Shown: positions 1,549 to 38,937, counted from the stretch's first letter. The stretch is 39,989 bases of DNA from a bacterium (GCA_041559575.1 JBFFDD010000002.1:1-39989); one strand, 5' to 3'. A program made the numbers and translations. The notes: a model not told the origin generated them from the letters alone.

Positions 1549-1628
1549 AGACTGAAATCCAGATTTCAAGTTCCAAATTCCAGAATTTCGGGATGTAACT
1601 CCTCGCTAACGGGAGAATCATTGGGAAT

Positions 1629-2831
1629 ATGGGGCCTGGAATTAGGAATGAAAGAATAGTGCGTCGGATTTTTTCCGTCGAAAAGGTCTCGCTCACCGCT
1701 TCGATCCTCGGAGCCTTGCCTCTGTTCGGGTTCGGGTTTGTCATCTTTCGTCCCAACCGCCTGGTGAGCGGATCCGCAGTCTCTCTATGGAAGACAGCCG
1801 GCGACTGGATCGGCTGGGTCATTGTTGCCACCTGGCTCGTTCTGATCCTTCTTACCATCATCAAGTCACAGGACCGGATCCGCCACAGCCTGCTCTGCCT
1901 ATTGAGTTGCGCCCTGATCCCGGGTTTGCTATTTCTTGCCGGCCGGCACGCCGCCCTGGTGGCCGAAATTCAGGGACCGGTTGCCAGGGTATCCTTCGGC
2001 CCGGGTTTCTGGATCCCCGTGTTCGCTCTGGGCGTGATCATCACAAACTCCTTTCAGCGCTCCCGGGGTGCCAGGATCATCCTTGGGACCGCGGTGTTTC
2101 TGTCCTTTTCATCCTGCCTCATTTTGCTGGTTTCGGGACGGACCGATTCCCTTTCCCTGATGCGGGAGTTCATCAACCGCAGAGGGAGATTCTTCGGGGA
2201 ACTCCGGATCCACATGGCCCTGGCTGTGTCGAGCGTCGGTATCGCTTTCCTCCTCGGCGTCCCCCTGGGAATGGTGGCTCATCGGGTGAAAAAACTTCGC
2301 ACGCCTACCTTTTTCACCCTCAACACACTTCAGACAGTTCCCAGCCTGGCCCTCTTTGGGATCCTTATCCCCGTCCTGGCCGCTCTTATTGGCAGGTTCC
2401 CGGTGCTGGGAAAGATGGGTATTTCCGGTATTGGCACTGCGCCGGCCATCATCGCTCTGACGGCCTACTCGCTCCTTCCGGTGGCCCGCAACACCTTCAC
2501 CGGATTTTCCACCGTTGACCCAGCGGCCGTGGACGCTGGTCTGGGGATGGGGATGACCCGTGCCCAGCTGCTGTGGAGGGTTGAACTGCCCATCGCCTCA
2601 CCGATCATCCTGAACGGAATCAGAACAGCTCTTGTCCAGGCTGTCGGTTTAACCGCAGTAGCCGCCCTCATCGGGGCCGGCGGGTTCGGGGTTTTTATCT
2701 TCCAGGGTCTGGGCCAGGCGGCCACTGATCTCATTCTCCTTGGAGCCGTGCCAACAATCGTTATCGCGGTGGCCGCCGACGCTGCTATGAGCACGTTGAT
2801 AGTCATCGTCGAACCTAAGGGGCTGAAATGA
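1629..2831 (+). CDS. osmoprotectant ABC transporter permease, long YehY-like form
   Basis: Polytopic 400-aa protein. The C-terminal half carries the ABC permease loop AAVDAGLGMGMTRAQLLWRVELPIASPIILNGIR. The extra N-terminal TM block matches the long permease of the yehZYXW arrangement. The exact start is uncertain. Confidence 0.8.
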   Translation: MGPGIRNERIVRRIFSVEKVSLTASILGALPLFGFGFVIFRPNRLVSGSAVSLWKTAGDWIGWVIVATWLVLILLTIIKSQDRIRHSLLCLLSCALIPGLLFLAGRHAALVAEIQGPVARVSFGPGFWIPVFALGVIITNSFQRSRGARIILGTAVFLSFSSCLILLVSGRTDSLSLMREFINRRGRFFGELRIHMALAVSSVGIAFLLGVPLGMVAHRVKKLRTPTFFTLNTLQTVPSLALFGILIPVLAALIGRFPVLGKMGISGIGTAPAIIALTAYSLLPVARNTFTGFSTVDPAAVDAGLGMGMTRAQLLWRVELPIASPIILNGIRTALVQAVGLTAVAALIGAGGFGVFIFQGLGQAATDLILLGAVPTIVIAVAADAAMSTLIVIVEPKGLK

Positions 2832-3910
2832 TAAGCCTCCGCAATGTGACCAAGGAGTACCCGGGAACCACGGCCGTCGATGATCTGACGTTCAGCATCC
2901 ACAAGGGGGAGTTCACCGTCCTCATCGGACCCTCAGGCTGCGGTAAATCGACCACTCTGCGCCTGATCAACCGGCTCATTGAGACCACTCGCGGGACGAT
3001 CGCCATTGACGACAGGGATATCACCGAATTCAGGCCCGAGGAACTCAGGAGGCAGATCGGCTATGCCATTCAGAGTGTCGGGCTTTTTCCCCATATGACG
3101 GTGGCCCAGAATATCGCCGTTGTCCCGAGACTTCTCAAATGGGACACCGGTCGCATCGACAACCGTACCGAAGGGCTTCTGGAACTGTTCTCCCTTGAAC
3201 CATCCGAATACCGGGACAAGTATCCGAGGCAGCTGTCGGGCGGAGAAGCCCAGAGGGTGGGAGTGGCCAGGGCATTGGCAGCCGATCCTGGCATCCTGCT
3301 CATGGATGAGCCCTTCGGCGCCCTGGATCCCATTACCCGGGAATCACTGCAACTCGAGTTCGCCCGCATTCAGCGGGATCTGAAGAAGACCATCGTCTTC
3401 GTCACCCACGACATCGATGAGGCTATCCGACTGGCAAACCGGATCGTTATTCTGAAGGATGGCAGGCTTGTCCAACACGACACACCTGAGAACATCCTCA
3501 CCTCCCCTGTCGACCGTTTCGTCCTGGAATTCATCGGTACCGACCGTGCCCTCAAACGTCTGTCGCGCCTGTCGGCGACCGATTTCACCGTCGAAGCACC
3601 GTCCATAGCTGCGGACCGGCCTCCATCAGAGGCTGCCAGGATCATTGAGGACCGCAGATATGTCTGGGTCGTGGACGCCGAAAACCGTCCCATAGGCTGG
3701 CTCGATCAGGACGATCTGACACTGGGGTCCCCGACAGCGGCTGAAGCGATGACCCCTATGGATCACCACACGGAAGCCATCGCCGCGGACGCCACTCTTC
3801 GGGAGGCCCTTTCGAGGATGATCCAGAAGGGGATCAGAGGCGCACCGGTGGTGGACGAGAGAGGGAACCTGCTGGGGGAAATACGGCTCTCAGACATCCT
3901 GGATGCTTAA
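2828..3910 (+). CDS. osmoprotectant ABC transporter ATP-binding protein with C-terminal CBS pair
   Basis: Walker A GPSGCGKST, signature LSGGEAQR, Walker B ILLMDEPF, and a CBS-like C-terminal extension. The ATGA start/stop overlap with the upstream permease indicates translational coupling. Confidence 0.9.
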   Translation: MISLRNVTKEYPGTTAVDDLTFSIHKGEFTVLIGPSGCGKSTTLRLINRLIETTRGTIAIDDRDITEFRPEELRRQIGYAIQSVGLFPHMTVAQNIAVVPRLLKWDTGRIDNRTEGLLELFSLEPSEYRDKYPRQLSGGEAQRVGVARALAADPGILLMDEPFGALDPITRESLQLEFARIQRDLKKTIVFVTHDIDEAIRLANRIVILKDGRLVQHDTPENILTSPVDRFVLEFIGTDRALKRLSRLSATDFTVEAPSIAADRPPSEAARIIEDRRYVWVVDAENRPIGWLDQDDLTLGSPTAAEAMTPMDHHTEAIAADATLREALSRMIQKGIRGAPVVDERGNLLGEIRLSDILDA

Positions 3911-3959
3911 GAGAGTGGAAAGTGGAAAGGGAAAAGGGGAAAGAAAGACGAAGGAGCAA
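3911..3959. repeat. purine-rich heptamer array (GGAAAGT family), 7 units, starting on the base after the ATPase stop codon
   Basis: Reads gagagtg gaaagtg gaaaggg aaaaggg gaaagaa agacgaa ggagcaa. The 13-mer gagagtggaaagt recurs as a reverse complement at 34717..34729. Confidence 0.7.
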
Positions 3960-4053
3960 CCCTTCGACTAAGCTCAGGGTAGGGACGAAGACGAAGCAAA
4001 AAGCCGGCATCTGGGCTCTGACTTCACCCTGAATACAGACTGCCACTAAAATT

Positions 4054-4785
4054 ATGTCCAAAAGCAAGCGCCGACAGATCCTCGTTTTACTAGTGCTCAT
4101 GGGAGCATTTATTTTCCTGGTCCTCTCCACCCTGCCCTGGTCCTGGTCAATGACCTTTCTCTTCCCTGACCTGGACACGGTCATCTACGCCATGGCCCCC
4201 TTCCGCCGTCTCGTCATGGAACACATTGCCCTGGTGGGGATCTCCAGCGGTCTGGCCACATTATTAGGTCTGGCCACCGGTATTTTCGCCACCCGAACCT
4301 GGGGCCGTGATTTCCTCCCCGCAGTCAACGCTCTGGCCTCCATGGGGCAGACCTTCCCACCTGTGGCCGTGCTGGCCCTGGCAGTCCCCGTTGTCGGTTT
4401 CGGATTCAAACCGACTATTATCGCCCTGCTGCTCTATGGGTTGCTACCGATCATCCGAAACACCATCGCGGGCATCGAGGCGTTGGATCCAGCCGTCCTG
4501 GAGGCCGCTCAAGGCATGGGGATGACTCCGGGCCAGGTTCTGACCAGAGTGGAACTGCCCCTGGCGGCCCCGGTCATCCTGGCCGGCGTACGGATCTCCA
4601 CGGTGATCAACATCGGGACAGCGACCCTCGGGGCGACCATCGGCGCCGGTGGTCTTGGAAAACCTATTATCGCCGGTCTGATCGGGGAGAACCCGGCTTA
4701 TATCCTGGAAGGGGCCCTCCTGGTCGGCCTCTTTGCCGTCATTATCGATACTGGATTGGGGTTGATGGTAAAAATCCAGAAATGA
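4054..4785 (+). CDS. osmoprotectant ABC transporter permease, YehW-like
   Basis: 243-aa polytopic protein with permease loop EAAQGMGMTPGQVLTRVELPLAAPVILAGVR. Fourth gene of the transporter cluster. Confidence 0.85.
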   Translation: MSKSKRRQILVLLVLMGAFIFLVLSTLPWSWSMTFLFPDLDTVIYAMAPFRRLVMEHIALVGISSGLATLLGLATGIFATRTWGRDFLPAVNALASMGQTFPPVAVLALAVPVVGFGFKPTIIALLLYGLLPIIRNTIAGIEALDPAVLEAAQGMGMTPGQVLTRVELPLAAPVILAGVRISTVINIGTATLGATIGAGGLGKPIIAGLIGENPAYILEGALLVGLFAVIIDTGLGLMVKIQK

Positions 4786-4820
4786 GAACTTTGAACCCTG
4801 AACTGGGGACTGAGCACCGA
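4786..4820. repeat. heptamer array (GAACTGA/GGACTGA family), 5 units, starting on the base after the stop codon
   Basis: Reads gaacttt gaaccct gaactgg ggactga gcaccga. ggactgagc also occurs in the array at 38875..38937. Confidence 0.55.
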
Positions 4821-4875
4821 GACGGGCTGAATGATATATTGGTGTACTGAAAATCCTTCGATGGAGGACCGGATA

Positions 4876-5307: not shown

Positions 5308-5407
5308 CACGTGGAGAGTGAAGGTTAAAAAGGGAAAGGGGGAGGCCTTGATGATTCCTCCTCCATCCTTCATCATTCACCCTCCAGGTCTCTCCTGCAC
5401 GGGTTCC

Positions 5408-5498
5408 AATCTCCAATCTCCAATCTCTAATCTCCAATCTCTAATCTCCAATCTCTAATCTCCAATCTCTAATCTCCAATCTCTAATCTCCAATTTCC
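5408..5498. repeat. perfectly phased heptamer tandem array, 13 x AATCTCY (about 6.5 x AATCTCCAATCTCT)
   Basis: Counted directly: aatctcc/aatctct alternate from 5408 to 5498. The stop codon and last codons of the minus-strand gene 5483..6424 lie inside the array. Confidence 0.95.
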
Positions 5499-6424
5499 AA
5501 TACTATCTTCCCTCTCACATGTTCCGTCTCACTCAACGCGTGGGCACGGCCTGCTTCCGAGAGGGGAAAGACCTCCGTTACGCTGGTCCTCACATGCCCC
5601 TCTTCGATAAGCCCGGCGATGGTGCCAAGCTGGGCCCCGTTGGGCTGAACGAAAACACCAACCCCCCTGACGCCCCTCTCGGCGGCCTTTCCCTCGTCCG
5701 GGGGGCCGAGGATCGAGACCAGGACGCCGCCTTCCTTTAACACCTGCCAGGAGCGGTCCTGGGTTTCCCCGGCCACAGCATCGAGGACCACATCGACATC
5801 GCTGACCGCATCCTCGAAGGGAACTTGGGTGTAATCGACAACCTCGTGGGCCCCGAGATCGATCAGGTAATCCCGGTTGCGGGCCGAAGCCGTCCCGATG
5901 ACCCGGGCGCCTTTCCACCTGGCAAACTGGACGGCAAAACTGCCCACCCCGCCGGCCGCGGCATGGATAAGCACCGTCTGCCCCGCCGTGAGGTCCGCCG
6001 CATCGAACAGGGATTGCCAGGCGGTAAGGGCAGCCAGCGGTATCGACGCCGCCTGGACGTGGTCGATGGATCTGGGTTTCAGGGCTGTGAACCCGGCCTT
6101 AACAGCGACATAATCCGCATAGGCCCCGTCACGGGAGATATCGGTAAAGGCATAGACCTCCTCCCCCACCTCCTTGTCGGTGACCTCAGATCCGGCTTTT
6201 TCCACCACACCGGAAACGTCCCAACCCAGGATGACCGGAAAATGGTAGGACAGCATTCCCTCCAGATATCCGGCCCGGACCTTCCAGTCAACGGGATTGA
6301 CGCCGGCTGCGTGGACACGGATCAGCACGTCGTCCTCCGATATATCCGGTACAGGAGCCTCCTCCAGAGCGAGGACATCGTGGCCGCCGTAGGAATGGAT
6401 ACGTACCGCTTTCATCTTGTCCAT
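5483..6424 (-). CDS. NADPH:quinone reductase / zinc-type alcohol dehydrogenase-like (MDR superfamily) oxidoreductase
   Basis: MKAVRIHSYGG... N-terminus and Rossmann motif AAGGVGSFAVQFAR. Start chosen at ATG 6424 (MDKMKAV) because GAGGAGAA lies just upstream. Confidence 0.85.
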   Translation of the reverse strand: MDKMKAVRIHSYGGHDVLALEEAPVPDISEDDVLIRVHAAGVNPVDWKVRAGYLEGMLSYHFPVILGWDVSGVVEKAGSEVTDKEVGEEVYAFTDISRDGAYADYVAVKAGFTALKPRSIDHVQAASIPLAALTAWQSLFDAADLTAGQTVLIHAAAGGVGSFAVQFARWKGARVIGTASARNRDYLIDLGAHEVVDYTQVPFEDAVSDVDVVLDAVAGETQDRSWQVLKEGGVLVSILGPPDEGKAAERGVRGVGVFVQPNGAQLGTIAGLIEEGHVRTSVTEVFPLSEAGRAHALSETEHVRGKIVLEIGD

Positions 6425-6756
6425 GATCGTTCTCCTCGAAAACATTGGTTCGGAATTCAATGGAACCCCGGGTTTTTATTAACAGGAGAAGCTTACCATA
6501 AAGCTCTTGCTGCAGAGAACCCGGTCAGGTCGGGAAAAATGGAGAATGGGGAACCCTGTCGCGTGGACAGGGCGAACAGGCGACTGTGAGACAGTATGAC
6601 CAAGCAATTTACCATTTGAGCCACTTTTTGGTTGAATCGACAGGTCGATAGGTCGGGGATTGAAACGTCTCAGTTCTCAGCTCTCAGGCCTAAATTATCA
6701 ATCACCTGATATAATTACCCTGTGACCATATTCCAATGATGGGGGGTAACTGAAAC

Positions 6757-7227
6757 ATGGCAGTGAGCGAGAGGTTGAAAAAGATATTCGAGGAACAGAA
6801 CGTACCCTACGATATCATGTACCATTCCGAGTCCTTCACGGCCCAGGAGAAGGCCGCCGGGCTACACGTGCCGGGGGCCCAGATGGTCAAGGTGGTCATG
6901 GCCAAAGCGGATGGGCAACTGGTGATGCTGGTCCTTTCGGCGGACTACAGTATCGACTTCGCTTTGCTCAGGGAAGCCCTGGGAACCAAAAAGGTCGGTC
7001 TCGCCGACGAGGCCGATTTCGGGAAATTCTTCCCCGACTGTGATCTCGGAGCCATGCCGCCCTTCGGGAATCTCTACGATATCCCGGTCTGGGTGGAGGA
7101 ACATCTGGCGGAGCAGGAAAGCATCGTCTTTAACGCCTGCACGCACCACGAGGCCGCCAGGATCGCCTACAGCGATTATGACCGGCTTGTCCATCCGAAG
7201 GTGGCGGAATTCGGGAGGCATGTATAA
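6757..7227 (+). CDS. YbaK/EbsC-type aminoacyl-tRNA deacylase domain protein
   Basis: 156-aa protein whose length and pattern (VKVVMAKADGQLVMLVLSADYSIDF...GAMPPFGNLY) fit the YbaK/ProX trans-editing fold. Confidence 0.7.
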   Translation: MAVSERLKKIFEEQNVPYDIMYHSESFTAQEKAAGLHVPGAQMVKVVMAKADGQLVMLVLSADYSIDFALLREALGTKKVGLADEADFGKFFPDCDLGAMPPFGNLYDIPVWVEEHLAEQESIVFNACTHHEAARIAYSDYDRLVHPKVAEFGRHV

Positions 7228-7234
7228 AGTCGGC

Positions 7235-7311
7235 GGAAAGTGGAAAGTGAAAGGAGAAAGCGTAAACCTCTTCAACCTTTCTCCATTAACCTTTAACCTT
7301 TGCCCTTAACC
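7235..7311. repeat. composite 11-heptamer (77 bp) element: GGAAAGT-type units followed by CTTTAAC-type units
   Basis: Reads ggaaagt ggaaagt gaaagga gaaagcg taaacct cttcaac ctttctc cattaac ctttaac ctttgcc cttaacc in one register. ggagaaag (7253..7260) can pair with ctttctcc (7277..7284). It lies between the convergent genes ybaK-like and cfa. Confidence 0.85.
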
Positions 7312-7324
7312 TCTGGTGAAGCCC

Positions 7325-9630: not shown

Positions 9631-9735
9631 TATGGAGAATGGAAAATGGCGATTGGAGATCAGAAACTGGATATTCGAGAATGGAGATGGGAAAAAGAGA
9701 GAGGAAAGCAGAAAGAATTAAGGGAAAAGGGCCAA
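9631..9735. repeat. degenerate heptamer array (AATGGAG/ATTGGAG, then GGGAAAA units), about 15 units
   Basis: Reads tatggag aatggaa aatggcg attggag atcagaa actggat attcgag aatggag atgggaa ... in one register. ATTGGAG is a circular permutation of GGAGATT, the complement of the AATCTCC family. Confidence 0.55.
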
Positions 9736-10861: not shown

Positions 10862-10922
10862 TCTTCCCCTGTCAGTTTGCGGATCCGGTTATTACAGTAT
10901 TCCAGGCAGGGTTGAATCCGAA

Positions 10923-10999
10923 GTTAAAGGTTAATGGATAAAGGTAAAAGAATAAAGTCAAACTCTTTCCACTTTCATTTTTAATTTACCACTTTACAG
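10923..10999. repeat. composite 11-heptamer (77 bp) element, inverted copy of the 7235..7311 architecture
   Basis: Reads gttaaag gttaatg gataaag gtaaaag aataaag tcaaact ctttcca ctttcat ttttaat ttaccac tttacag. 10923..10943 matches the reverse complement of 7277..7297 at 20 of 21 positions. Confidence 0.85.
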
Positions 11000-11110
11000 T
11001 CGAATTTAATTCTTTCCTAAAAACCCTTGCCGATAAAAAACCGGCTGTTTTTAATGGTTCGATAATTGTTATAATTCGCCAGGTGTTTTAGCCCACTGAG
11101 GGACTCTTTC

Positions 11111-12933: not shown

Positions 12934-12968
12934 TGGATTTTGGACTTTGCAATGTGGGATTTTGAATT
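12934..12968. repeat. heptamer array (TGGATTT / TTTTGGA family), 5 units, abutting a stop codon
   Basis: Reads tggattt tggactt tgcaatg tgggatt ttgaatt. ggattttggac also occurs at 12826..12836 and is the complement of gtccaaaatcc at 18733..18743 region and 24208..24218 region. Confidence 0.6.
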
Positions 12969-12974: not shown

Positions 12975-13787
12975 TCATCCTTCCGGAATAGCATCCTCGC
13001 ACGGCACATCCGTCTGGCACAGGCCGCACCCCAACTCGGAAACACCGTACTCCTCCTTGAGAGCCTGGAAACCAGGGCCGGATGTGTACCGCTGGCATAG
13101 GTGCTTGTCGTGCCCATCCAGGGAGATGGCGCCCACCGGGCAGCGCTGTATGCAGACGCCGCATTCCAGGCCCCTGCACGTCAGACAGTTCTCCCGGTAG
13201 TCCCTGTAGGGTCGCGCGCTGGGTTCCATGACAAAGTCCGTTATCACGCTCCCGCACCGGTGGGCGATGCCTCGGGGTGTTATCAGACCGTCGTTGAGGC
13301 TGAAGGTACCCAGGCCGGCGGCGTAAGCCGCGTGCCGCTCGGACCAGGTGGACGCCAATCCGATCCGGGGGTCATCGACCCTGGCCCATCCATCGGCCAG
13401 CATCGGGGCGACCGCGTGACAACCGCGGGAGATGAGGAACCGGACCACCGCTTTTCGCAGCTCATCGTTGAACCTCTCCCCGAAGTTCCGGGTCCTTCCC
13501 CACTCCAAGGACGGGTATCTGTCCTGTTTTCGATTACTCACCCTGGTTCGTTCTGTAATGGGGAGGATCCAGCTGACCACCGTTCCCTCGTCCCGCCCGA
13601 GAATCTCAGTGGGCGCCCAGTGGAAAGGGCCGATTATGTCCTTGTACCCATCAAAGAGGGGATCTGTCGCAGAAGCGAAGCCCACCAACGGCGTGTCGAA
13701 GTAAGCTTGGCCCTCCGAGAAGCGGTTTGCGGGATGCTCCCTGGTGAGCCGCTCGATCTCCTCATGGAGCTCTGTTTTAAGATCCAT
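12975..13787 (-). CDS. 4Fe-4S dicluster protein, epoxyqueuosine reductase (QueG)/reductive dehalogenase-like
   Basis: Cys clusters CLTCRGLECGVCIQRCP and CGLCQTDVPC. Start placed at ATG 13787 (MDLKTELHEEI) with AAGAGG upstream. Confidence 0.6.
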   Translation of the reverse strand: MDLKTELHEEIERLTREHPANRFSEGQAYFDTPLVGFASATDPLFDGYKDIIGPFHWAPTEILGRDEGTVVSWILPITERTRVSNRKQDRYPSLEWGRTRNFGERFNDELRKAVVRFLISRGCHAVAPMLADGWARVDDPRIGLASTWSERHAAYAAGLGTFSLNDGLITPRGIAHRCGSVITDFVMEPSARPYRDYRENCLTCRGLECGVCIQRCPVGAISLDGHDKHLCQRYTSGPGFQALKEEYGVSELGCGLCQTDVPCEDAIPEG

Positions 13788-14064
13788 GGTTTGCCTCTTG
13801 TCCGGTTGGGAGGTATGAATGATTCTAAAATTGTAAAGATTATGGGGGAAAGGTAAAAGGAGAAAGGTCAATGGAGCCTCCGCTGACTTTTTGCCTCTAC
13901 ACTTTCCTCGACATTACCCCTTCTGTGCCCCCTGTGGAGTAGACCCTGAACTCTTTCTCGGCGAACCTTGGCTCCCGCGGCGAGGCTGAAAGCCAAGCCG
14001 GTCGGCTTTGCGAGAGACAGCCTTCCGGTGCGAATTATGGAGATGAACCTGGTTTTTCCGAGGA

Positions 14065-18672: not shown

Positions 18673-18749
18673 GAAATTATGGATTGGAAATTGAAGATTC
18701 CGGGTTGATGGTCATTTCGATCCAAAATCCAAAGTCCAAAATGTTAAAT
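18673..18749. repeat. heptamer array (GGATTGR then TCCAAAA families), 11 units
   Basis: Reads gaaatta tggattg gaaattg aagattc ... ccaaaat ccaaagt ccaaaat gttaaat. 18721..18742 (tccaaaatccaaagtccaaaat) matches 24195..24216 at 21 of 22 positions. Confidence 0.7.
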
Positions 18750-18890: not shown

Positions 18891-19988
18891 ATGGCCCGAT
18901 GTGAACTCTGCCATTTGTCGGATCGGACAATTTCCCGGGAATTGGGGGTCTGTCTCCGGTGTATCAGGGAAGATCCCGACCAGGCTCTCCCGTTGGCGGG
19001 CGAGGCCCACCGCCGGAGCCGGAGGGAATTTGGCCTGCCGGAAAAGGTCCCCAAGCATGCTGACGGACTTGCCTGTATCGTCTGCGTCAACGAATGCCTG
19101 ATCCCCGAGGGAGAGCGGGGGTACTGCGGCCTGAGGATTAACGAGGGAGGAAAGCTGACCGGCGTCTCCTCAGACCGGGGAAAACTGTCCTGGTACCGCG
19201 ATCCCCTGCCCACCAACTGTGTCTCCGACTGGGTGTGTCCCGCCGGGACCGGATGCGGATATCCGGAGTACTCCCTCACCAGCGGCCCGGAGGTCGGTTA
19301 TAGCAACCTGGCGGTCTTCTTCCACGCCTGCTCCCTGGAGTGCCTTTCCTGCCAGAACTGGCAATTCCGGAACGCCACCATGGAACCTGAGGTCAAGTCG
19401 CCGGAAGACCTCGCTGAGGCGGTGGACGACCGGACAGCCTGCATCTGTTATTTCGGCGGCGACCCGGCGCCCCAGGCTCCGTTTGCCATCCAGGCGTCCC
19501 AAGCCGCCATGAAAAGGAGGAAAAAAGGCATCCTGAGGATATGCTGGGAGACCAACGGCACAGCCGCGACCCACCTCATGGACGATATGCTCGAGCTTTC
19601 CCTGACCTCCGGCGGCTGTGTCAAGTTCGATCTGAAAGCACACGATGAGAAGCTGGCCCTCGCCCTGACAGGGGTCACCAATCGACGCACCCTGGAAAAC
19701 TTCCAGAGGACAGTGGAGGCGTCAAGGGATCGCCCCATCCCTCCCCCGGTGGTAGCCAGTACCTTGATGGTCCCCGGCTACATCGACGAAAGTGAGATCC
19801 GCTCCATCGCCCGGTTCATCGCCTCGGCCGATCCCGGCATCCCCTACAGCCTCCTGGCCTTCTATCCCCATTTCCGCATGCGGGACCTCCCGCTTATGAC
19901 CAGAGATGAGGCTGAGGCGATGAGGGATAGCGCGCTGGCAGAGGGACTGACCCGGGTGAAGTTGGGGAATGAGCATTTATTGAGATAG
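18891..19988 (+). CDS. radical SAM enzyme, PflA/AmmeMemoRadiSam-like activase family, with Cys-rich N-terminal extension
   Basis: CX3CX2C motif CSLECLSCQNW. N-terminal CELCH...CLRC and CIVCVNEC clusters. GERGYCGLR motif typical of this rSAM subgroup. Confidence 0.75.
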   Translation: MARCELCHLSDRTISRELGVCLRCIREDPDQALPLAGEAHRRSRREFGLPEKVPKHADGLACIVCVNECLIPEGERGYCGLRINEGGKLTGVSSDRGKLSWYRDPLPTNCVSDWVCPAGTGCGYPEYSLTSGPEVGYSNLAVFFHACSLECLSCQNWQFRNATMEPEVKSPEDLAEAVDDRTACICYFGGDPAPQAPFAIQASQAAMKRRKKGILRICWETNGTAATHLMDDMLELSLTSGGCVKFDLKAHDEKLALALTGVTNRRTLENFQRTVEASRDRPIPPPVVASTLMVPGYIDESEIRSIARFIASADPGIPYSLLAFYPHFRMRDLPLMTRDEAEAMRDSALAEGLTRVKLGNEHLLR

Positions 19989-20023
19989 GGATTAGAGATT
20001 GGAGATTGGAGATTGAAGATTGA
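19989..20023. repeat. heptamer array 5 x AGATTGR (complement of the AATCTCY family), starting on the base after the stop codon
   Basis: Reads ggattag agattgg agattgg agattga agattga. This is the same family as 5408..5498 in the opposite orientation. Confidence 0.85.
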
Positions 20024-20073
20024 AAACCAGAATAATATATCATTAGAGCATTAGAAAGATCCTTTAAACCATT

Positions 20074-20108
20074 AATGTCCAATATCTAATTTCTAATTTC
20101 CAATGGTC
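20074..20108. repeat. heptamer array 5 x AATNTCY, inverted partner of 19989..20023
   Basis: Reads aatgtcc aatatct aatttct aatttcc aatggtc. With 19989..20023 it forms an imperfect inverted repeat around an AT-rich 50-nt spacer. Confidence 0.7.
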
Positions 20109-20151: not shown

Positions 20152-20727
20152 ATGGATTGGCACTCCCCATCACTCTTCGCTATCCTTGACGGTCGCGACG
20201 GAAAAGCCCTTCTTGGGCAATGCCTCAAAGGGGATTTCACCCCCGTGTTCCGGGCCCTCGCATTCCATAAGGTTCGATATCTCATTGTCGGCGGCGCGGC
20301 CATGAACCTGCACGGGATCCCCCGGTTGACGGATGATCTGGACCTGTTCGTAGATCTCCGTGAGGACAACCTGGTCCGGTTGCAGGCTGCCATGGAGGAT
20401 CTGGGATGTACGCCCCCTCCTTCGGTGGACCCTGACCACATCCTGCAGGAGGAGTCCCGGAAAATACTTTCCCGGGAAAGCTGCAGATCCACCATCTCAT
20501 TCATCAACCCTGAGGAACCCGGCCTCAAGGTCGAAATCCTGCTTCTGGCCCCAGCATCCTTCAATGAGGTCTACCCGAGGCGGCAGTGGACCCCCTTCGG
20601 CGAAATGGAACTCCCGGTCCTGTGCCTCGATGACATGATAAGGTTCCTTAACCTATACGGCCGGGACCAGGACCCAAGGGATATTCAGATATTGGAAAAA
20701 GTGCGGGAGATCAGAGGGAAGAGATAG
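20152..20727 (+). CDS. nucleotidyltransferase-fold (MNT-like) protein, uncharacterised
   Basis: The G-x(n)-DxD pattern VGGAAMNLHGIPRLTDDLDLFVD is typical of minimal nucleotidyltransferases. No adjacent HEPN-like partner is seen. Confidence 0.55.
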   Translation: MDWHSPSLFAILDGRDGKALLGQCLKGDFTPVFRALAFHKVRYLIVGGAAMNLHGIPRLTDDLDLFVDLREDNLVRLQAAMEDLGCTPPPSVDPDHILQEESRKILSRESCRSTISFINPEEPGLKVEILLLAPASFNEVYPRRQWTPFGEMELPVLCLDDMIRFLNLYGRDQDPRDIQILEKVREIRGKR

Positions 20728-20844
20728 TTTCCAGTTTCTAGTTTCCAGTTTTCAGTTTCCAGTTTCCAGTTTTCAGTTTCCAGCTTCCAGTTTCCAGTTC
20801 TCAGTACTTAGCTCTTAGTTCTTGGCTCTCAGTTCTCAGCTCCT
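20726..20844. repeat. 17 consecutive in-register heptamers drifting from AGTTTCC to AGTTCTC/AGCTCTT
   Basis: Counted directly: agtttcc agtttct agtttcc agttttc agtttcc agtttcc agttttc agtttcc agcttcc agtttcc agttctc agtactt agctctt agttctt ggctctc agttctc agctcct. The array starts inside the TAG stop of the upstream gene. Confidence 0.95.
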
Positions 20845-24159: not shown

Positions 24160-24257
24160 GTTCCAGGTTTCAGGTTTCAGGTTTCAGAAAATGTTCCAAA
24201 ATCCAAGGTCCAAAATCAACAATAAGAACCTTTAACCACAGAGGACACAGAGAGGGG
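24160..24257. repeat. 14 in-register heptamers spanning four motif families (GTTTCAG, TCCAAAA, CTTTAAC, CACAGAG)
   Basis: Reads gttccag gtttcag gtttcag gtttcag aaaatgt tccaaaa tccaagg tccaaaa tcaacaa taagaac ctttaac cacagag gacacag agagggg. Confidence 0.85.
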
Positions 24258-25980: not shown

Positions 25981-26024
25981 GGGGAAAGGAAAAAGGGAAA
26001 AGGGGAAGGTGGAAAAGTGAAAGC
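25981..26024. repeat. purine-rich heptamer array (GGGAAAA/GGAAAGT family)
   Basis: Reads ggggaaa ggaaaaa gggaaaa ggggaag gtggaaa agtgaaa. Confidence 0.6.
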
Positions 26025-26121: not shown

Positions 26122-26156
26122 ACTTAGCACTTAGCACTTTGTGCTTAGCACTGCTT
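26122..26156. repeat. heptamer array 5 x ACTTAGC-type, ending 1 nt before a minus-strand stop codon
   Basis: Reads acttagc acttagc actttgt gcttagc actgctt. Confidence 0.7.
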
Positions 26157-26157
26157 T

Positions 26158-26502
26158 TCAGCACGTTAAATGCAGCGCCGCGGCGACCCTCTCCCCTTTC
26201 TTCATCAGCTCGTTGAACCGCTCGCAGGCCCGATCCGTCGTCAGGACTTCGACCTGTATCCCGGCCGATTCCATATCCTTCACTGTCTCCTCCGGAACGC
26301 ACATATGTCCGGAGGATCCCTTGCCTACGACGAGGATAACCGGACGGTATGCCAGAACCTCAGCCAGGTCTGCGGTGAACAGCCTGTGCCCCTCGTTGCG
26401 CCACCAGTTCTCCTTGACATCCGGAGGCAGGAGGACGACATCGCTGCCGTAATCCTTTCCATCGACCCTGATGGTCCCGAACCTGAATCCCTCGATCCTC
26501 AT
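26158..26502 (-). CDS. Mth938-like domain protein (DUF498/NDUFAF3-like)
   Basis: 114 aa. IEGFRFGTIRVDGKDYGSDVVLLP...ILVVGKGSSGHM pattern typical of the Mth938 fold family. Confidence 0.65.
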   Translation of the reverse strand: MRIEGFRFGTIRVDGKDYGSDVVLLPPDVKENWWRNEGHRLFTADLAEVLAYRPVILVVGKGSSGHMCVPEETVKDMESAGIQVEVLTTDRACERFNELMKKGERVAAALHLTC

Positions 26503-27249: not shown

Positions 27250-27459
27250 ACGGTCATTAAAACGGAGTTGAGAGGGTTGTTCAAGGAGGAAGGGTAAAGA
27301 AAAGTGGAAGGTGGAAAGGGAGGAACATTCGTCCTATGGGATGAGATGTCGGAGTATCGGGGTGCCGGGGTAATGGCGCAAAAACATAAGCGTTGAAAGA
27401 ATCGAGCGAAGCCATTAACAGGAATCACGCCTCTGACGAGATGACGAATCAATCCCTTA

Positions 27460-27522
27460 AATTTTGAATTTTGAATATGGAATTTTTTTCTGTTACTAAT
27501 CACAAATCACGAATCACGGACT
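27460..27522. repeat. heptamer array (AATTTTG then ACNAATC units), 9 units
   Basis: Reads aattttg aattttg aatatgg aattttt ttctgtt actaatc acaaatc acgaatc acggact. Confidence 0.65.
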
Positions 27523-27551
27523 AAATATTTTGGACGGTATCCCGATTCCGC

Positions 27552-27580
27552 AAAAAAAAAGCCGGCAGCAGCCGGCTTTT
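27552..27580 (-). terminator. rho-independent terminator downstream of lpxC
   Basis: On the minus strand, aaaagccggc tgct gccggc is followed by nine T. The palindrome gccggc-agca-gccggc has A/T runs on both sides, so it may work in both directions. Confidence 0.8.
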
Positions 27581-28574: not shown

Positions 28575-28725
28575 ATCGGACAGAAAGGTACAAATAATAA
28601 TTTTTACTTAATTTACAGTGATTTACATTGCATTACGGGCGGAATTGGAGGGAAGGCAGCGGCGGTGCAGCGGCAAGTGTGCCATAATTGCAACACAGGG
28701 TGTGTCAAATATGCGACAACTCTTG

Positions 28726-30910: not shown

Positions 30911-32220
30911 CAGCTTCGGTTCCTCGCGACCAATTCGGCCTTGCCCTGCCTGATCCATTGAACCAGGTTCCGGTCAGCGGGACAGACGTAAGTGCAGCAG
31001 CCGCATTCGATGCAATCGTTGATGTGAAACTCAGGCAGGCCGTCGAAAAGATCCCACTCCACCATTGCGCCGAGGGTATGGGGCATCAGGGAGGCCGGGC
31101 AGCCGCGGACACAGGCCCCGCATCGGATACAGGCCCTCGATTTGAGCTCCCGGAAATCCCCCGGTCCGAAAAGGAGCAGCCCGCTGGTCCCCTTGGTCAC
31201 CGTGCTCTCGAGGCTCGCCAGGGCCGTCCCCATCATCGGGCCGCCATTGATGATCCGGGCAGCCGGACCTGTCATCCCACCCGTGTTTTCCACAATATGG
31301 GACAGGGGGGTACCGACAGCCACCCGGTAGTTTCCCGGACCCTTGGAAAGGGTTCCTCCCAGGGTCATCACCCGCTCGACAAAGGGCCGGCCGAGGGTTA
31401 TCGCTTCGTGGATGGCCGCCAGCGTACCCACGTTCTGCACCACCACCCCTACATCCATGGGAAGTCCTCCCGAGGGGACTTCCCTGCCGGTAAGGGCGTA
31501 GATCAGCTGTTTTTCTGCTCCCTGAGGGTACATGACCGGCAGGACGGAGACCTCGAAACCCTCAGGCAGGTCCATGGACCGCATCCTGTCCACCGCGTCG
31601 GGCTTATTGGCCTCAATACCCACAACGGCCTTTTCCGCCCCCACCATCCGCAGGGCAAGGCGCAGACCGCTCAGGATGGACTCCGGATCCTCCAGCATGA
31701 GGCGGTGGTCCGCTGTCAGGAAGGGTTCGCACTCCACTCCGTTGGCAACCACCATGTCTATGGGTTTGTCCTCGGGGGGGTTGAGTTTGACATGGGTGGG
31801 GAAGGCAGCGCCACCCATCCCGACGATTCCCGCCTCACCGACCATCTTCTTCCATGCTTCCGGTCCTTTGGTCAGTTCCGGATCAGCGTTCGAGAGGGTG
31901 TCGAGGGCCTCATCCTCCCCATCGGGCTCGATCACCACCGCAGGGATGAACCGGCCCGTGGTGTGAATGGAAGGTTCGATGGCCTTGACGGTTCCGGAGG
32001 TCGGTGAGTGGATCGGCGCAGAGACATAACCGGAGGCCTCGGCTACCACCTGGTACTTCAGGACCCGGTCCCCTGCCGAAACGATCGGCTTGGCCGGCGC
32101 GCCGATATGCTGCGATAAGCTCAGCCGAATTTCACCGGGGAGGGGAAGCTCCTGGATGCCGGCTTCCCTGGTGTCCTTGTGATCATGGGGGTGCACCCCC
32201 CCGACAAACATTCTCTTCAC
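30910..32220 (-). CDS. rnfC: Rnf electron transport complex subunit C
   Basis: GGVHP N-terminal motif. Two ferredoxin motifs, CIRCGACVRGCP and CIECGCCTYVCP. GTG start with GAGGA 6 nt upstream. Confidence 0.9.
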   Translation of the reverse strand: MKRMFVGGVHPHDHKDTREAGIQELPLPGEIRLSLSQHIGAPAKPIVSAGDRVLKYQVVAEASGYVSAPIHSPTSGTVKAIEPSIHTTGRFIPAVVIEPDGEDEALDTLSNADPELTKGPEAWKKMVGEAGIVGMGGAAFPTHVKLNPPEDKPIDMVVANGVECEPFLTADHRLMLEDPESILSGLRLALRMVGAEKAVVGIEANKPDAVDRMRSMDLPEGFEVSVLPVMYPQGAEKQLIYALTGREVPSGGLPMDVGVVVQNVGTLAAIHEAITLGRPFVERVMTLGGTLSKGPGNYRVAVGTPLSHIVENTGGMTGPAARIINGGPMMGTALASLESTVTKGTSGLLLFGPGDFRELKSRACIRCGACVRGCPASLMPHTLGAMVEWDLFDGLPEFHINDCIECGCCTYVCPADRNLVQWIRQGKAELVARNRS

Positions 32221-34583: not shown

Positions 34584-34609
34584 TGTTTTGCTCCTATAAA
34601 TTAGCGCGG

Positions 34610-34727
34610 GTTAAGGATTAAAGGGTAAATGTTAAAGGTTAAAGAAAAAGAGATAGAGTTAAAGGAAGTTTCAATAACGCTTTAACCCCTATTCTGATTT
34701 TCCCTTTCCACTTTCTACTTTCCACTC
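34610..34727. repeat. composite heptamer element: GTTAAAG-type array then ACTTTCC-type array (same architecture as 10923..10999, inverse of 7235..7311)
   Basis: Reads gttaagg attaaag ggtaaat gttaaag gttaaag ... tccactt tctactt tccactc. 34717..34729 is the reverse complement of 3911..3923. Confidence 0.8.
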
Positions 34728-34733
34728 TCTAAT

Positions 34734-35646: not shown

Positions 35647-35889
35647 ATCCCTCCCCGAAATTTACAATGAATTCAATCAGTTATAAACCGGATTCCTTTG
35701 TGAACCTATAAACCCTTCATCCCCTTCGGATAAACTAGTTGAAACTATACTTTCAGCCCGATTTTTGTCAAGGGAAGAGGGGAAAAATGCCGTAATCAGA
35801 GGAATTTTTCCCGGTGTTTAGTGTCCGGTTTCTGGAAAAGGATGAATCGAGCCGCTTCTGAGGATCCGGAAAGTCGCTATGAATTCTGA

Positions 35890-35945
35890 TGGATAGTGGA
35901 AACTGGAAACTGAAAACTGGAAACTGAAAACTCGAAACTGCGGAA
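35890..35945. repeat. heptamer array 8 x TGRAAAC (complement of the AGTTTCC family)
   Basis: Reads tggatag tggaaac tggaaac tgaaaac tggaaac tgaaaac tcgaaac tgcggaa. This is the same family as 20726..20844 in the opposite orientation. Confidence 0.85.
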
Positions 35946-37627: not shown

Positions 37628-37700
37628 AGTTTGGAGTTTGAAGTTTGTGGTTTGAAATGTTAATGCGACAGGTATTCAGGTGTCAGGATTCAGTATTCAG
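37628..37700. repeat. two adjacent heptamer arrays (AGTTTGR x4, then NNTTCAG x4)
   Basis: Reads agtttgg agtttga agtttgt ggtttga ... tattcag gtgtcag gattcag tattcag. The rest of the 313-bp spacer also looks 7-periodic. Confidence 0.7.
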
Positions 37701-37935
37701 GAAAACCCGGTCAAAATCTCTCTGAGCTCTTCGCAAAGAGCCCTTAGCCCTTAATTCTTTCCTCCCGGTTGTTAAGTTCTCAGCCCTCGGTTCTTGGTAC
37801 TTCGTCCCGTTTTTTTAACTTTTTCGTAACAATTTCGAACCCTTCTGGCCTCCCGGACGGCATGGGTTATAATTGTGAATAGGATGAGGGCCTTAAAGGA
37901 CCGGAGAGGAGACATTACCGGAAGGCGGTGAAAGC

Positions 37936-38856
37936 GTGAGAACCTTTGTGATCGTTCTGCTGATCTTGGCCTGGTTAACTCCGGCCCAGGCAGCCTGGGA
38001 TTTTTCCAGACACAGCATCCCCATTGAGGATATTCTTTCTGGCGGCCCGCCGAAGGACGGGATACCCGCCCTGGTCAAACCGGCCTTCATCACTGCCGGG
38101 GCTGCCGGCAGACTTCTGTCGGCCGACGACAGGGTCATCGGGGTCCGCCTCGGAGACACGGTCAAGGCCTACCCCATTCGGATCCTCAACCACCACGAAC
38201 TGGTCAACGACAGAGCTGGGGAACGTTCCATTCTGGTGAGCTGGTGACCCCTGTCCGGAGCGGGCGTCGTGTACGCCCGGCAAGCGGGTGGCAGAACTCT
38301 TACCTTCGGGGTGTCTGGCCTCCTCTACAGGGCCAACGTGCTGATGTACGATCACCAGACGGAATCCCTTTGGTCCCAGGTCAAAAGGTCAGCGGTCACC
38401 GGATCTTTTACCGGGACGAAACTGGAGGTGCTCCCCTCCGTTCTGACGACCTGGGGCAAGTGGCGCAAACGTTATCCTCAGACCCTCGTCCTGTCCTTTG
38501 ACACCGGATACAGGAGGAATTACGACCGGGATCCCTATGAATCCTACCGACGAAACCGCGGCACTTGGAGCGGTTTTCTGTCCTCTTTCATCGGACACCG
38601 CCTCAGTGAGGGAGATGTTGCGCTCGTGGCCGGTATCGAACTGGGAGGAAAAAGCCGGGGCTACCGCCTTACGGACCTCCGTGAGAAGGGCAGCATCGTC
38701 GACAGACTCGGAAGTGAGGAGATAAGAGTGTCCTTCGACCCGGCCACCGACAGCGTTTCGGTGACATCATTAACGGGCGAGAAAATTCCCCATGTGCTAA
38801 TATACTGGTTCGTATGGAAGGAGACGCATCCTGAGGCTGATCTGTATCAGCCCTAG
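37936..38856 (+). CDS. DUF3179 domain protein, exported; single in-frame TGA (38245..38247) at the CPLC-motif position - candidate selenoprotein (alternatively a pseudogene)
   Basis: The track ORFs 37936..38247 and 38269..38856 share one reading frame and are separated only by the TGA. The joined translation ...GERSILVSW-U-PLSGAGVVYARQAGGRTLTFGVSGLLYRANVLMYDHQTESLWSQ follows the DUF3179 pattern (KDGIPA..., AYP..., HE.VND, (T)YCPLC, FGVSG, MYD..T.S.W.Q). Signal peptide MRTFVIVLLILAWLTPAQA. GTG start. Confidence 0.6.
38261..38279 (+). promoter_or_regulatory. candidate bacterial SECIS-like hairpin downstream of the in-frame TGA
   Basis: cgggcg (38261..38266) pairs with cgcccg (38274..38279). 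The 7-nt loop ucgugua contains GU. The stem starts 13 nt after the TGA, putting the loop about 20-26 nt downstream. Confidence 0.35.
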
Positions 38857-38874
38857 ACCCGAACGGTGCCCAAA

Positions 38875-38937
38875 GAACTGATAACTGAGGACTGAGCCCT
38901 AGGAGCTAAGTTCTTAGTTCTCAGCTCTCAGACCCAG
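38875..38937. repeat. 9 in-register heptamers with internal inverted symmetry (NNACTGA x3 ... GTTCTCA/GCTCTCA)
   Basis: Reads gaactga taactga ggactga gccctag gagctaa gttctta gttctca gctctca gacccag. The 16-mer agttctcagctctcag (38916..38931) is identical to 6672..6687. Confidence 0.8.

Follow-up and report, generated by a model that had tools for sequence, protein, structure and literature searches.

Intergenic period-7 arrays of an uncultured Proteobacteria-like bacterium as probable heptanucleotide satellites

An excess of intergenic heptanucleotide repeats has been reported for phylogenetically scattered bacteria and ascribed to polymerase slippage (Mrazek 2007, as cited in PMC4679880 and PMC4692102). 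Described cases include the GGGAATC repeats of Xanthomonas (PMC4692102), the TAACTGA repeats of marine Beggiatoaceae, some Cyanobacteria and Bacteroidetes (MacGregor 2015, PMC4679880) and the heptanucleotide elements of Geobacter metallireducens (PMC2700814). For the stretch of 39,989 nucleotides studied here (GCA_041559575.1 JBFFDD010000002.1:1-39989, hereafter the window), the original prediction named the STRR (short tandemly repeated repetitive) heptanucleotides of heterocystous cyanobacteria as the closest precedent, and we agree. It also raised an independent or undescribed repeat system; the host is indeed not a cyanobacterium, but repeats of this kind have already been described in scattered bacteria. 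The phenomenon is therefore already known, while the host is new and the density of arrays unusually high.

Over the 30 intergenic segments of the window (6,204 nt), identity at a lag of 7 nt was 0.352 against 0.2565 ± 0.006 in 200 dinucleotide shuffles (z = 15.4), with lags 14 and 21 likewise elevated (z = 12.9 and 10.3); the lag-7 identity of coding DNA was 0.2496, without such enrichment. A maximal-segment detector called 20 lag-7 arrays in the window, all 20 of them in intergenic DNA, which makes up 15.5% of its length, and gave just 0–2 calls each at lags 5, 6, 8, 9, 10 and 11. Tandem Repeats Finder (TRF) returned about 25 arrays of period 7, 14, 21 or 28 at the places expected. Seven was the best lag in all 21 of the intervals listed among some 25 sites read by eye, and 20 of these were individually significant (shuffle p ≤ 0.002), the exception being 27285-27326 (p = 0.11). 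The arrays keep out of gene interiors and are AT-richer than coding DNA (39% versus 59% GC), as had been predicted, and amount to about 0.5–0.6 per kb, taking up 3.4% of the total DNA and 22% of its intergenic part. Of the 29 spacers measuring 30 nt or more, 18 (62%) carry arrays, so that the claim that nearly every spacer is filled by them was too strong. The small set of recurring motif families held up in full: each of the nine formed tandem dimers on either strand in several unlinked spacers, and only 3 of about 60 family matches listed fell in coding DNA.

Spacers between convergent, divergent and tandem genes all carry arrays, and so do spacers inside operons; of 21 arrays, 11 come within 10 nt of a stop codon and one comes equally close to a start. 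The GGAAAGT-type array at 3911..3959, with its G-rich strand on +, begins 1 nt past the stop of the ABC ATPase gene 2828-3910, and a degenerate GAACTGA-type array (4786..4820; lag-7 identity 0.68, p < 0.001) occupies the 45-nt spacer behind the permease gene 4054-4785; both spacers (3911-4053 and 4786-4830) belong to a probable operon. A long TCCAATC/TCTAATC array of 13.9 units with a 14-nt super-unit, whose unit number varies between strains, spans 5405..5501 and reaches into the end of the ADH-like gene 5483-6460(-), covering its final codons and its stop. TCTCAGT units of the AGTTCTC family (6668..6690) stand 67 nt upstream of gene 6757-7227. Between convergent genes at 7235..7311, a GGAAAGT array is followed by a CTTTAAC array, constant in unit number in 10 strain contigs save for a 1-nt G indel, and degenerate TGGAGAA/GGAGATT-type units with a 21-nt super-period cover 9631..9735. 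The divergent spacer at 10923..10999 holds a GTTAAAG array and then a CTTTCCA array. Further along, a GGATTTT array of the TTTTGGA family (12934..12968) lies 7 nt off the stop of gene 12975-13871(-), and GGAAATT/GGATTGG units followed by a TCCAAAA array (18673..18749) lie behind gene 18295-18663. At 19986..20024 the radical-SAM gene 18891-19988 ends, with its TAG stop, inside the first unit of a GGAGATT array; the orthologous array in the sister species L001 counts about 18 units of this family.

TCTAATT/TCCAATA units at 20074..20108 are placed 44 nt upstream of gene 20152-20727, past which a long AGTTTCC array (GGAAACT on the - strand, 11 units) leads into AGTTCTC/AGCTCTT units between convergent genes (20726..20844), with the AGTTTCC part varying by whole units between strains. 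GGTTTCA, TCCAAAA and CACAGAG arrays share 24160..24257, upstream of gene 22759-24150(-). The GGAAAAG/GGGGAAA array at 25981..26024 lies 15 nt from the DUF885 gene start, in the sole spacer clearly conserved with L001, and an ACTTAGC array (26122..26156) is 2 nt off the stop of the DUF498 gene 26158-26502(-). After the weak GGAAGGT/GGAAAGG stretch at 27285..27326, AATTTTG and AATCACG arrays (27460..27522) are located downstream of the lpxC intrinsic terminator. The rpiB/glyA spacer is filled by a GGTTAAA array and then a CTTTCCA array (34610..34731), in which strain contigs differ by point substitutions only. Seven GGAAACT/GAAAACT units with a 14-nt super-unit (35890..35945), constant in number between strains, precede the NFACT gene by 31 nt, and an AGTTTGG array followed by a TTCAGGA array (37628..37700) lies past its stop. 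Lastly, GAACTGA/TAACTGA/GGACTGA units at 38875..38937 are followed by an AGTTCTC array, which is the same family inverted. In the host species a G-rich array preceded a C-rich one in all six adjacent pairs scored by the detector, and GC skew fell from left to right in 22 of 29 spacers. This order was not reproduced in relatives, with 5 G-then-C against 7 C-then-G pairs (11 against 7 when all genomes were pooled). An extra spacer of L081, outside the window, also had the G-rich-then-C-rich order as judged by eye.

The host's closest genomes are MAGs classified no further than "bacterium" or "Proteobacteria bacterium", and identity of the host LpxC to that of any other Gammaproteobacteria is at most about 50%. 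The host is an unclassified, uncultured Proteobacteria-like anaerobe from sediment; a cyanobacterium is excluded, in line with the very different lineage originally predicted. Against L001 (76% amino-acid identity, 4-fold identity 0.49), one of 13 orthologous spacers was clearly conserved above the non-orthologous background, namely 25967-26157 (0.80 identity, non-orthologous maximum 0.71), and the MT/fabH spacer was only marginally above it (0.68 versus 0.66). Orthologous spacers often kept the unit family with a changed copy number (11 GGAAACT units versus none; 5 TCCAATC units versus about 18), and some carried arrays where the other genome has none. Deeper relatives (L002, L004, L111, L113-L115) showed equal array density with other unit families, although the TCCAAAG/AAGTCCA family recurred in five related genomes. 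Arrays were absent from 130 of 160 unrelated loci, and on this reading the propensity to form heptamer arrays is a property of the lineage, present in relatives and lacking in most other bacteria.

Separate JGI, SRA/Logan and NCBI assemblies yielded contigs of 99.5-99.9% identity in which the arrays recur. That they are assembly or sequencing artefacts, which the original prediction had named as a way in which it could fail, is close to inconceivable: short-read contigs frequently end within the two longest arrays, but base-for-base identical arrays are carried by more than 20 independently assembled contigs (JGI, SRA/Logan and NCBI MAG projects), dozens of assemblies made independently for this species reproduce them, and homologous arrays are present in related complete genomes. 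For the short arrays, on which independent assemblies agree, an artefact was rejected. Unit number differed between strains in two long homogeneous arrays. The fabH/AbiEii spacer measures 132 nt in the window, 160 in L093 and L097, 167 in L091 and 174 in L092, thus stepping by 7, with the GGAAACT, GAAAACT and GGAAGCT variants in different orders and haplotypes that recur between assemblies. The cytochrome c/ADH spacer with its TCCAATC array is 175 nt long in the window and 140 nt (five units fewer) in L101 and L110, with a third arrangement in L102. Such differences in arrays of at least 100 nt come from short-read assemblies and may be mis-assembled in part. No unit-number change was seen in short or degenerate arrays at about 6-fold coverage of 28 kb by strain contigs. 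The slippage-driven variation originally suggested is therefore seen in the two long arrays only, the others being fixed in unit number. Segregating-site density in arrays was 0.0088, which compares with 0.0119 at 4-fold sites, 0.0121 in the rest of the intergenic DNA and 0.0033 at the remaining coding sites; substitution in arrays within the species thus runs close to the neutral rate.

We consider it probable, on balance, that the arrays are satellite-like heptanucleotide microsatellites of the STRR or long simple sequence repeat type, arising mainly as a mutational by-product. A 7-nt unit in an unconstrained spacer would be amplified head-to-tail, whether by slippage during replication or by unequal recombination, and arrays that are long and homogeneous would go on gaining and losing whole units, until point mutations interrupted them, stopped the slippage and left them to drift at about the neutral rate. 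The whole-unit polymorphism between strains fits polymerase slippage, the mixture of near-perfect and degenerate arrays is what slippage followed by interruption would leave, and the super-periods of 14, 21 and 28 nt found by TRF are typical of satellite evolution. Arrays would fill those parts of spacers that selection can spare, reaching up to and sometimes into stop codons while leaving ribosome-binding sites and promoters clear. They would have no dedicated cellular function, yet would alter the spacer length and UTR composition of neighbouring genes. Satellites account for neither the period of 7 nor the recurrence of families at unlinked sites. We count against them this recurrence and the shared irregular units, the TCCAAAG/AAGTCCA family in five relatives, the 80%-conserved spacer 25967-26157, the G-then-C order in the host species and the possible mis-assembly of arrays of at least 100 nt.

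The recurrence is pronounced, with a mean nearest-neighbour unit distance of 0.66 against 1.38 ± 0.13 in the null. Composites of a GTTAAAG array and then a CTTTCCA array at three spacers (7228-7324, reversed; 10915-11005; 34600-34733) align down to their deviant units, 7269-7297 being complementary to 10923-10951 at 90% over 29 nt with the same deviant units included. Array 35890..35945 is complementary at 88% (51 nt) to the array at 20746-20796, and 19986..20024 matches part of 5405-5501 in 26 nt of perfect complementarity. The leading edge of array 3911..3959, GAGAGTGGAAAG, is matched exactly at 34718-34729(-) and directly follows two different stop codons. Pure, independent local slippage fails to account for such shared irregularities of unit order and flank, and copying between loci, or else constraint or selection acting on the unit sequence, is needed. 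Dispersal of small mobile or recombining composite elements (MITE/REPIN-like, or by gene conversion), with slippage growth secondary, would explain these matches and the common flank, but long chance matches are expected between low-complexity arrays of one family, the arrays lack terminal inverted repeats, target-site duplications and stable hairpin arms, the window lacks a transposase or RAYT-like gene, and the strains compared showed no insertion polymorphism; we regard it as improbable. Still less credible are inverted arrays pairing into long hairpins that act as terminators or 3-prime mRNA stabilisers (REP-like, as proposed for cyanobacterial STRRs; PMC2670836). G-rich and C-rich arrays do often adjoin, and a few spacers folded better than shuffles (3911-4053, z = -2.4; 19989-20151 and 38857-38960, both z = -2.1), but the adjacent arms are mostly of different, non-complementary families, the mean folding z over 20 spacers was -0.15 against +0.12 for coding controls, and several array spacers folded worse than shuffles (34584-34733, z = +1.6; 20728-20859, z = +1.5). 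Divergent spacers carry arrays as well, terminator-like sites were no commoner than in shuffles, and the few convincing ones lay outside arrays. The suggested role in 3-prime UTR structure or termination is thus not borne out.

The same lack of structure (only -8.3 kcal/mol across the 132 nt of 20728-20859) would be expected if the arrays were functional cis-elements read as single-stranded RNA (or DNA), that is, multivalent platforms for a general RNA-binding protein or heptad-reading factor. Candidates would be ribosomal protein S1 (C/U-rich unstructured leaders), CsrA (GGA units) and Rho (C-rich, G-poor tracts), whose binding would adjust translation, the fate of transcripts or how well transcription units are insulated. 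Similar ideas have been put forward for TAACTGA repeats (PMC4679880) and Nostoc heptamers (bioRxiv 10.1101/2022.06.06.494920). The non-random recurrence of few unit families, the presence of one family at orthologous sites in the window and L001, the recurrence of a family in five related genomes, the one conserved array spacer, the G-rich-then-C-rich spacers of the host species and the scarcity of convincing intrinsic terminators all point this way, as does the lack of a Shine-Dalgarno-like motif in five of seven genes with an array at most 45 nt upstream (25 of 40 genes overall have one), a link based on those 7 genes. Most array spacers, however, are unalignable with L001 beyond background, relatives use differing families with arrays coming and going between spacers, the G-then-C order fails there, and drift within the species is roughly neutral; arrays inside a probable operon speak against a general terminator or Rho-loading role. 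We therefore hold such cis-elements to be possible but rather unlikely. The whole-unit differences between near-identical strains might instead mark contingency loci, where slippage would switch or tune an adjacent gene for bet-hedging, and the variable array encoding the last codons and stop of the ADH-like gene would change its C-terminal tail too. This phase variation is improbable, because all 20 arrays lie outside ORF interiors, both variable ones sit between convergent 3-prime ends rather than at promoters or 5-prime coding regions, the remainder are constant in unit number across many strains, and the neighbours are housekeeping genes (fabH, lpxC, glyA, rnf) rather than surface or restriction-modification genes.

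Among known systems, the four- and five-fold heptanucleotide elements of Geobacter metallireducens (GGACCGG and MTYCTGA; PMC2700814) likewise consist of heptamers in short tandem sets, repeated at dozens of places, and an MTYCTGA-like array occurs here (ATCCTGA, - strand, 37676-37700); those with GGACCGG have a high GC content and a fixed number of four copies, and some lie within genes, unlike the AT-rich, length-variable and strictly intergenic arrays of the window. The GGGAATC/GGGGAYT repeats of Xanthomonas and Nostoc (Rehm 2015, PMC4692102) share an intergenic position, occasional inverted pairs between convergent genes, and the same gene neighbours in related species with varying length and sequence. 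The units here lack the G-runs required for quadruplexes, and GGGAATC and GGGGATT tandems were not found in the window. TAACTGA repeats (PMC4679880) are also intergenic direct heptamer repeats, hosts including a gammaproteobacterial group; their unit has close relatives here in the AGTTCTC family and in the GAACTGA/TAACTGA/GGACTGA units at 38875-38897, and a canonical ribosome-binding site is often missing from genes that follow the repeats there and, weakly, here. That system has a single unit in 2–6 copies, mostly a few nt upstream of start codons, in contrast to the many families here, mostly beside stop codons. Long simple sequence repeats (Mrazek, Guo & Shah 2007, PNAS), as summarised in PMC4679880 and PMC4692102, have units of 5-11 nt, with heptamers commonest and over-represented, and are mostly intergenic and phylogenetically sporadic, with polymerase slippage invoked; the density here looks very high beside theirs, in a comparison that is not quantitative. 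The STRRs of Calothrix, Nostoc and Anabaena differ in their cyanobacterial host and in the hairpin ability proposed for some of them, which was not seen here, and their units CCCCAGT, TTGGTCA and CAACAGT form no tandem repeats in the window. Neither they nor the present arrays have a known function (PMC2670836, PMC4692102, bioRxiv 10.1101/2022.06.06.494920). In both, tandem 7-nt units are restricted to non-coding DNA, with several families per genome at many loci, in both orientations and often near gene ends or starts.

Intergenic DNA of the window was found to have a pronounced period of 7 nt. A gene map built from Pfam-supported open reading frames (ORFs) and codon-usage scoring delimited 30 intergenic segments (6,204 nt), in which identity of each base with the base 7 nt downstream (lag-7 identity) was 0.352 versus 0.2565 ± 0.006 in 200 dinucleotide-preserving shuffles of the same segments (z = 15.4), with harmonics at lags 14 and 21 (z = 12.9 and 10.3). 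The lag-7 identity of coding DNA was 0.2496, and its only period was the usual one of 3. The excess expected for intergenic DNA in the original prediction was borne out. Tandem Repeats Finder returned about 25 arrays of period 7, 14, 21 or 28 in the window, coinciding with those read by eye. The best lag was 7 for all 21 intervals listed by eye, 20 of which reached p ≤ 0.002 against shuffles, the interval 27285–27326 being the only one without significance on its own. A maximal-scoring-segment detector called 20 lag-7 arrays, every one of them intergenic although intergenic DNA makes up 15.5% of the window, and gave 0–2 calls at lags 5, 6, 8, 9, 10 and 11. The arrays are thus absent from gene interiors, and their GC content (39%, versus 59% for coding DNA) agrees with the predicted AT-richness. 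The claim that nearly every spacer is filled with them was an overstatement, since 18 of the 29 spacers measuring 30 nt or more carried an array. Overall, the observation was confirmed and its interpretation is partly supported.

The arrays comprise 3–14 units and vary from almost perfect to strongly degenerate, with several of them organised in super-units of 14, 21 or 28 nt, and in 20726–20844 one family grades into another in place (AGTTTCC to AGTTCTC to AGCTCTT). All nine motif families named in the prediction were recovered as tandem dimers on both strands, as had been claimed, in several unlinked spacers and almost never in coding DNA. Across unlinked spacers the mean nearest-neighbour distance between units was 0.66 (1.38 ± 0.13 under a base-composition null), 9.6% of unit pairs lay within one substitution (null 3.3 ± 1.0%), and irregular unit orders or a flank were common to some unlinked arrays.

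With respect to gene orientation, arrays were present in all three convergent spacers, in three of four divergent spacers and in 12 of 22 tandem spacers, and they also occur within a probable ABC-transporter operon. Eleven of 21 arrays are no more than 10 nt away from a stop codon, and one is equally close to a start; the stop codon itself is included in three arrays (19986, 20726 and 5405–5501). Specifically, the stops of an ADH-like gene (5483–5501), a radical SAM gene (19986–19988) and an AbiEii-like gene (20725–20727) lie within the adjoining array. The last six or so codons of the ADH-like gene are units of the array 5405–5501, and its C-terminal tail differs between strains because these units change. 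The arrays were also considered as stop-codon pads, a period of 7 bringing a stop into all three frames within 21 nt, and this was rejected on inspection of the sequence because several common units (GGAAAGT, GGAGATT) contain no stop triplet. A Shine-Dalgarno-like motif precedes about 60% of the genes in the window and is missing from five of the seven genes that have an array 45 nt or less upstream, a weak hint of an association. A 463-aa protein without Pfam match (22759–24150, minus strand), 72–85% conserved in the sister species locus L001 and the relatives L003 and L111, lacks such a motif, and 9 nt separate its start codon from a GGTTTCA array.

The arrays recurred in about 30 contigs of the same species, retrieved by exact protein matches from JGI, SRA/Logan and NCBI assemblies and 99.5–99.9% identical to the window. 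Being reproduced in independent assemblies, they are no assembly artefacts, and we give that explanation practically no weight. The unit-number variation of slippage type proposed in the prediction was seen in two long homogeneous arrays, but short or degenerate arrays never differed in unit number among these contigs, the sole indel in any of them being a single G at 7249. Besides the two long arrays, the strain contigs cover about 15, all of them invariant. The fabH/AbiEii spacer measures 132 nt in the window and 160, 167 or 174 nt in other strains, as judged from short-read assemblies, many of which have contigs ending within one of the two long arrays. The order of its GGAAACT, GAAAACT and GGAAGCT variants also differs between strains, in haplotypes common to several assemblies, while the adjoining degenerate GAGAACT units are invariant. 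The cytochrome c/ADH spacer, with its TCCAATC array, is 5 units shorter in the strain contigs L101 and L110 (140 nt) than in the window (175 nt), and strain contig L102 has a third unit arrangement. The density of segregating sites was 0.0088 for the arrays, compared with 0.0119 for 4-fold degenerate sites, 0.0121 for the remaining intergenic DNA and 0.0033 for the remaining coding sites, so that on this measure array drift is close to neutral. Separately, the strain contig L081 is missing 57 nt where rnfC meets rnfD (window 30920–30976); its RnfC and RnfD are called at 413 and 313 aa, those of other strains at 436 and 334 aa.

Between species the arrays turn over. The sister species locus L001 is collinear with the window (76% amino-acid identity, 4-fold identity 0.49), and its orthologous spacers often hold the same unit family in the same place at another copy number: 11 GGAAACT units in the window face none in L001, 5 TCCAATC units face about 18, and the nrdR/rnfC spacer has an array in L001 and none in the window. 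The syntenic comparison thus yielded the differences in unit number that had been looked for. Only one of 13 spacers (25967–26157) was clearly conserved with L001 beyond the non-orthologous background, which the MT/fabH spacer exceeded marginally. Among further relatives, array density was equal or higher in L002 (about 0.5 per kb), L004, L111 and L113–L115, reaching 2–3 arrays per kb in L115, and L003 was poor (about 0.1 per kb). These deeper relatives use partly different families, with TCCAAAG/AAGTCCA recurring in five genomes. Of 160 unrelated loci, 130 had no array, a distribution that matches the sporadic pattern of the literature. Dense arrays were seen in a few unrelated contigs (L122, L129, L131, L133 and the uncultured Chromatiaceae contig L010), often as adjacent inverted pairs of one family such as four AGTTTCG followed by four CGAAACT.

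A polarity was also apparent in the window, where a G-rich array precedes a C-rich one in all six adjacent pairs scored and GC skew, read left to right, declines along 22 of 29 spacers regardless of gene orientation; an extra same-species spacer (L081 1827–2041) has the same order by eye. As a general rule this was rejected, the pairs of relatives splitting 5 versus 7 and those of all genomes 11 versus 7, and the succession of G/purine-rich and C/pyrimidine-rich DNA, on either strand, stands as a species-level oddity. The spacers hold other elements as well. The cytochrome c7-like gene is preceded by a near-consensus sigma-70 promoter (TTGACA-16-TATAGT; 35744–35771, minus strand) that L001 and the relative L004 also have, so the lineage uses ordinary promoters, and arrays sit outside promoters. 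The array-free spacer upstream of lpxC (28594–28725) contains a conserved inverted motif, TGTTGCAA ... TTGCAACA / GTGT, also present in L001 (9855–10000), L002 (9792–10000), L003 (9745–10000), L004 (9777–10000) and L005 (2749–2960). This motif may be an operator or other regulatory site of lpxC. Spacer 15229–15804, likewise without heptamer array, includes an uncalled small hydrophobic ORF of about 60 aa within 15450–15700 (minus strand), with a strong intrinsic terminator behind it (15475–15450). Lastly, DUF3179 is encoded by two ORFs 21 nt apart (37936–38247 and 38269–38856; 103 and 195 aa), identically in all strain contigs and L001, which reflects either a true pair of genes or a gene split long ago.

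The best-supported reading, which we consider probable, is that the arrays are slippage-driven heptanucleotide satellites. They would be born in unconstrained spacer DNA, grow and shrink by whole units while long and pure, become frozen by mutational interruptions and then decay, occupying space up to stop codons but sparing promoters and ribosome-binding sites. The data show the periodicity and its confinement to intergenic DNA, polymorphism by whole units, near-neutral drift, turnover among species and a lack of structure; that slippage is the molecular mechanism, and that the arrays have no function, is what we infer. This reading does not cover the reason for a period of 7, nor does it account for the small unit vocabulary that recurs at unlinked sites and across genomes and is the main support for its rivals. 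One rival is that the arrays are functional RNA- or DNA-binding platforms, an explanation we regard as rather unlikely. More speculative, and doubtful in our view, is a lineage-wide, strand-specific cis-regulatory layer in which a multivalent binder would recognise a limited set of heptads in unstructured single-stranded RNA, with G-rich arrays after stops and C-rich ones before starts in this species. Such a binder might resemble S1, CsrA or Rho, or be a protein dedicated to reading heptads, and the layer would partly replace Shine-Dalgarno-dependent initiation and insulate transcription units, with slippage tuning the dosage of binding sites. Spread by copying or mobility we hold to be improbable; no RAYT, transposase, terminal inverted repeats or target-site duplications were found in the 40-kb window. 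Contingency loci have a similarly small chance, given that arrays lie outside ORF interiors and the variable ones between convergent 3′ ends.

A role in 3′ UTR structure or termination, as had been suggested, gained no support, and hairpin terminators are a very remote prospect. When 20 spacers were folded against dinucleotide shuffles, and also against shuffles of each half separately, no excess stability was found (mean MFE z = −0.15; coding controls +0.12), several array spacers being less structured than random; a hairpin function was rejected accordingly, and the stable stem-loop of inverted arms that marks REP/REPIN/MITE-type extragenic palindromes was not seen in these spacers. A promoter/terminator scan of the window gave about as many terminator-like sites as shuffles. 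Arrays were absent from the convincing matches to an intrinsic terminator (GC-rich hairpin plus U-tract), which lie outside them. One of these, a GC stem with a run of 9 T at 27550–27580 (minus strand), directly follows lpxC and has an equivalent in L001–L005, the heptamer arrays of that spacer lying beyond it. The window had no match to an Rfam family or tRNA.

Intergenic heptanucleotide repeats have been known since 1990, and to our knowledge neither their origin nor their function has so far been explained. With small genomes (2–2.8 Mb), very high density, array-rich and array-poor sisters and many near-identical strains already in public metagenomes, the present lineage is a compact natural experiment in which one can follow directly how arrays are born, expand, come to a halt and decay. 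Correlates of a 7-nt slippage bias, such as replication or repair gene content, could be searched for by genome comparison. In practical terms, the arrays break short-read assemblies, and the two long ones are ready VNTR markers for strain typing.

The nearest LpxC matches of the host are complete "bacterium" MAGs (CP070719.1, 82%; CP070698.1, 74%; CP070682.1, 67%), together with a "Proteobacteria bacterium" MAG from Zodletone spring, and nearly all others belong to Gammaproteobacteria or unclassified Proteobacteria at no more than 50% identity (next-best about 49%). Its gene content (Rnf complex, cytochrome c7-like protein, NrdR, LpxC, NFACT protein) fits an anaerobic diderm. The predicted distance from the lineages carrying STRRs, the heptanucleotide repeats of heterocystous cyanobacteria, holds, as the host does not belong to the cyanobacteria. 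The canonical STRR units are CCCCAGT (STRR1), TTGGTCA (STRR2) and CAACAGT (STRR3), and no tandem dimer of these was found in the window on either strand with up to one mismatch; for both reasons the arrays, strictly speaking, fall outside the STRR family. STRRs nevertheless stand as the closest precedent, sharing head-to-tail 7-nt units, restriction to non-coding DNA and the presence of several unit families, each scattered over many sites and found in either orientation. In Beggiatoaceae, TAACTGA forms exact direct repeats of 2–6 copies, the majority a few nt upstream of a start (PMC4679880), whereas the window has one near-dimer (38873–38890) and 4 single copies in 40 kb, and its arrays favour stops. 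G-quadruplex heptamers of the GGGAATC type have a run of at least 3 G per unit in at least 4 consecutive units; here, unit consensuses have 1–2 adjacent G in all arrays but one (AAAGGGG, 25981–26024), and neither GGGAATC or GGGGATT tandems nor the unit GGACCGG was found in the window. The suggestion of an undescribed repeat system does not hold, given the non-cyanobacterial precedents in Xanthomonas (GGGAATC; PMC4692102), Beggiatoaceae and Geobacter metallireducens (PMC2700814) and the known class of long simple sequence repeats (SSRs). Heptanucleotide long SSRs are over-represented in scattered prokaryotes and ascribed to polymerase slippage (Mrazek 2007, as cited in PMC4679880 and PMC4692102). 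The present arrays share with that class a unit of 5–11 nt and an intergenic excess beyond chance, and the two long ones, in short-read assemblies, its gain and loss of whole units, the short ones being stable. By this comparison they behave like cyanobacterial STRRs and belong to the long-SSR class, as an unusually dense new example in an uncharacterised lineage rather than a new kind of system.
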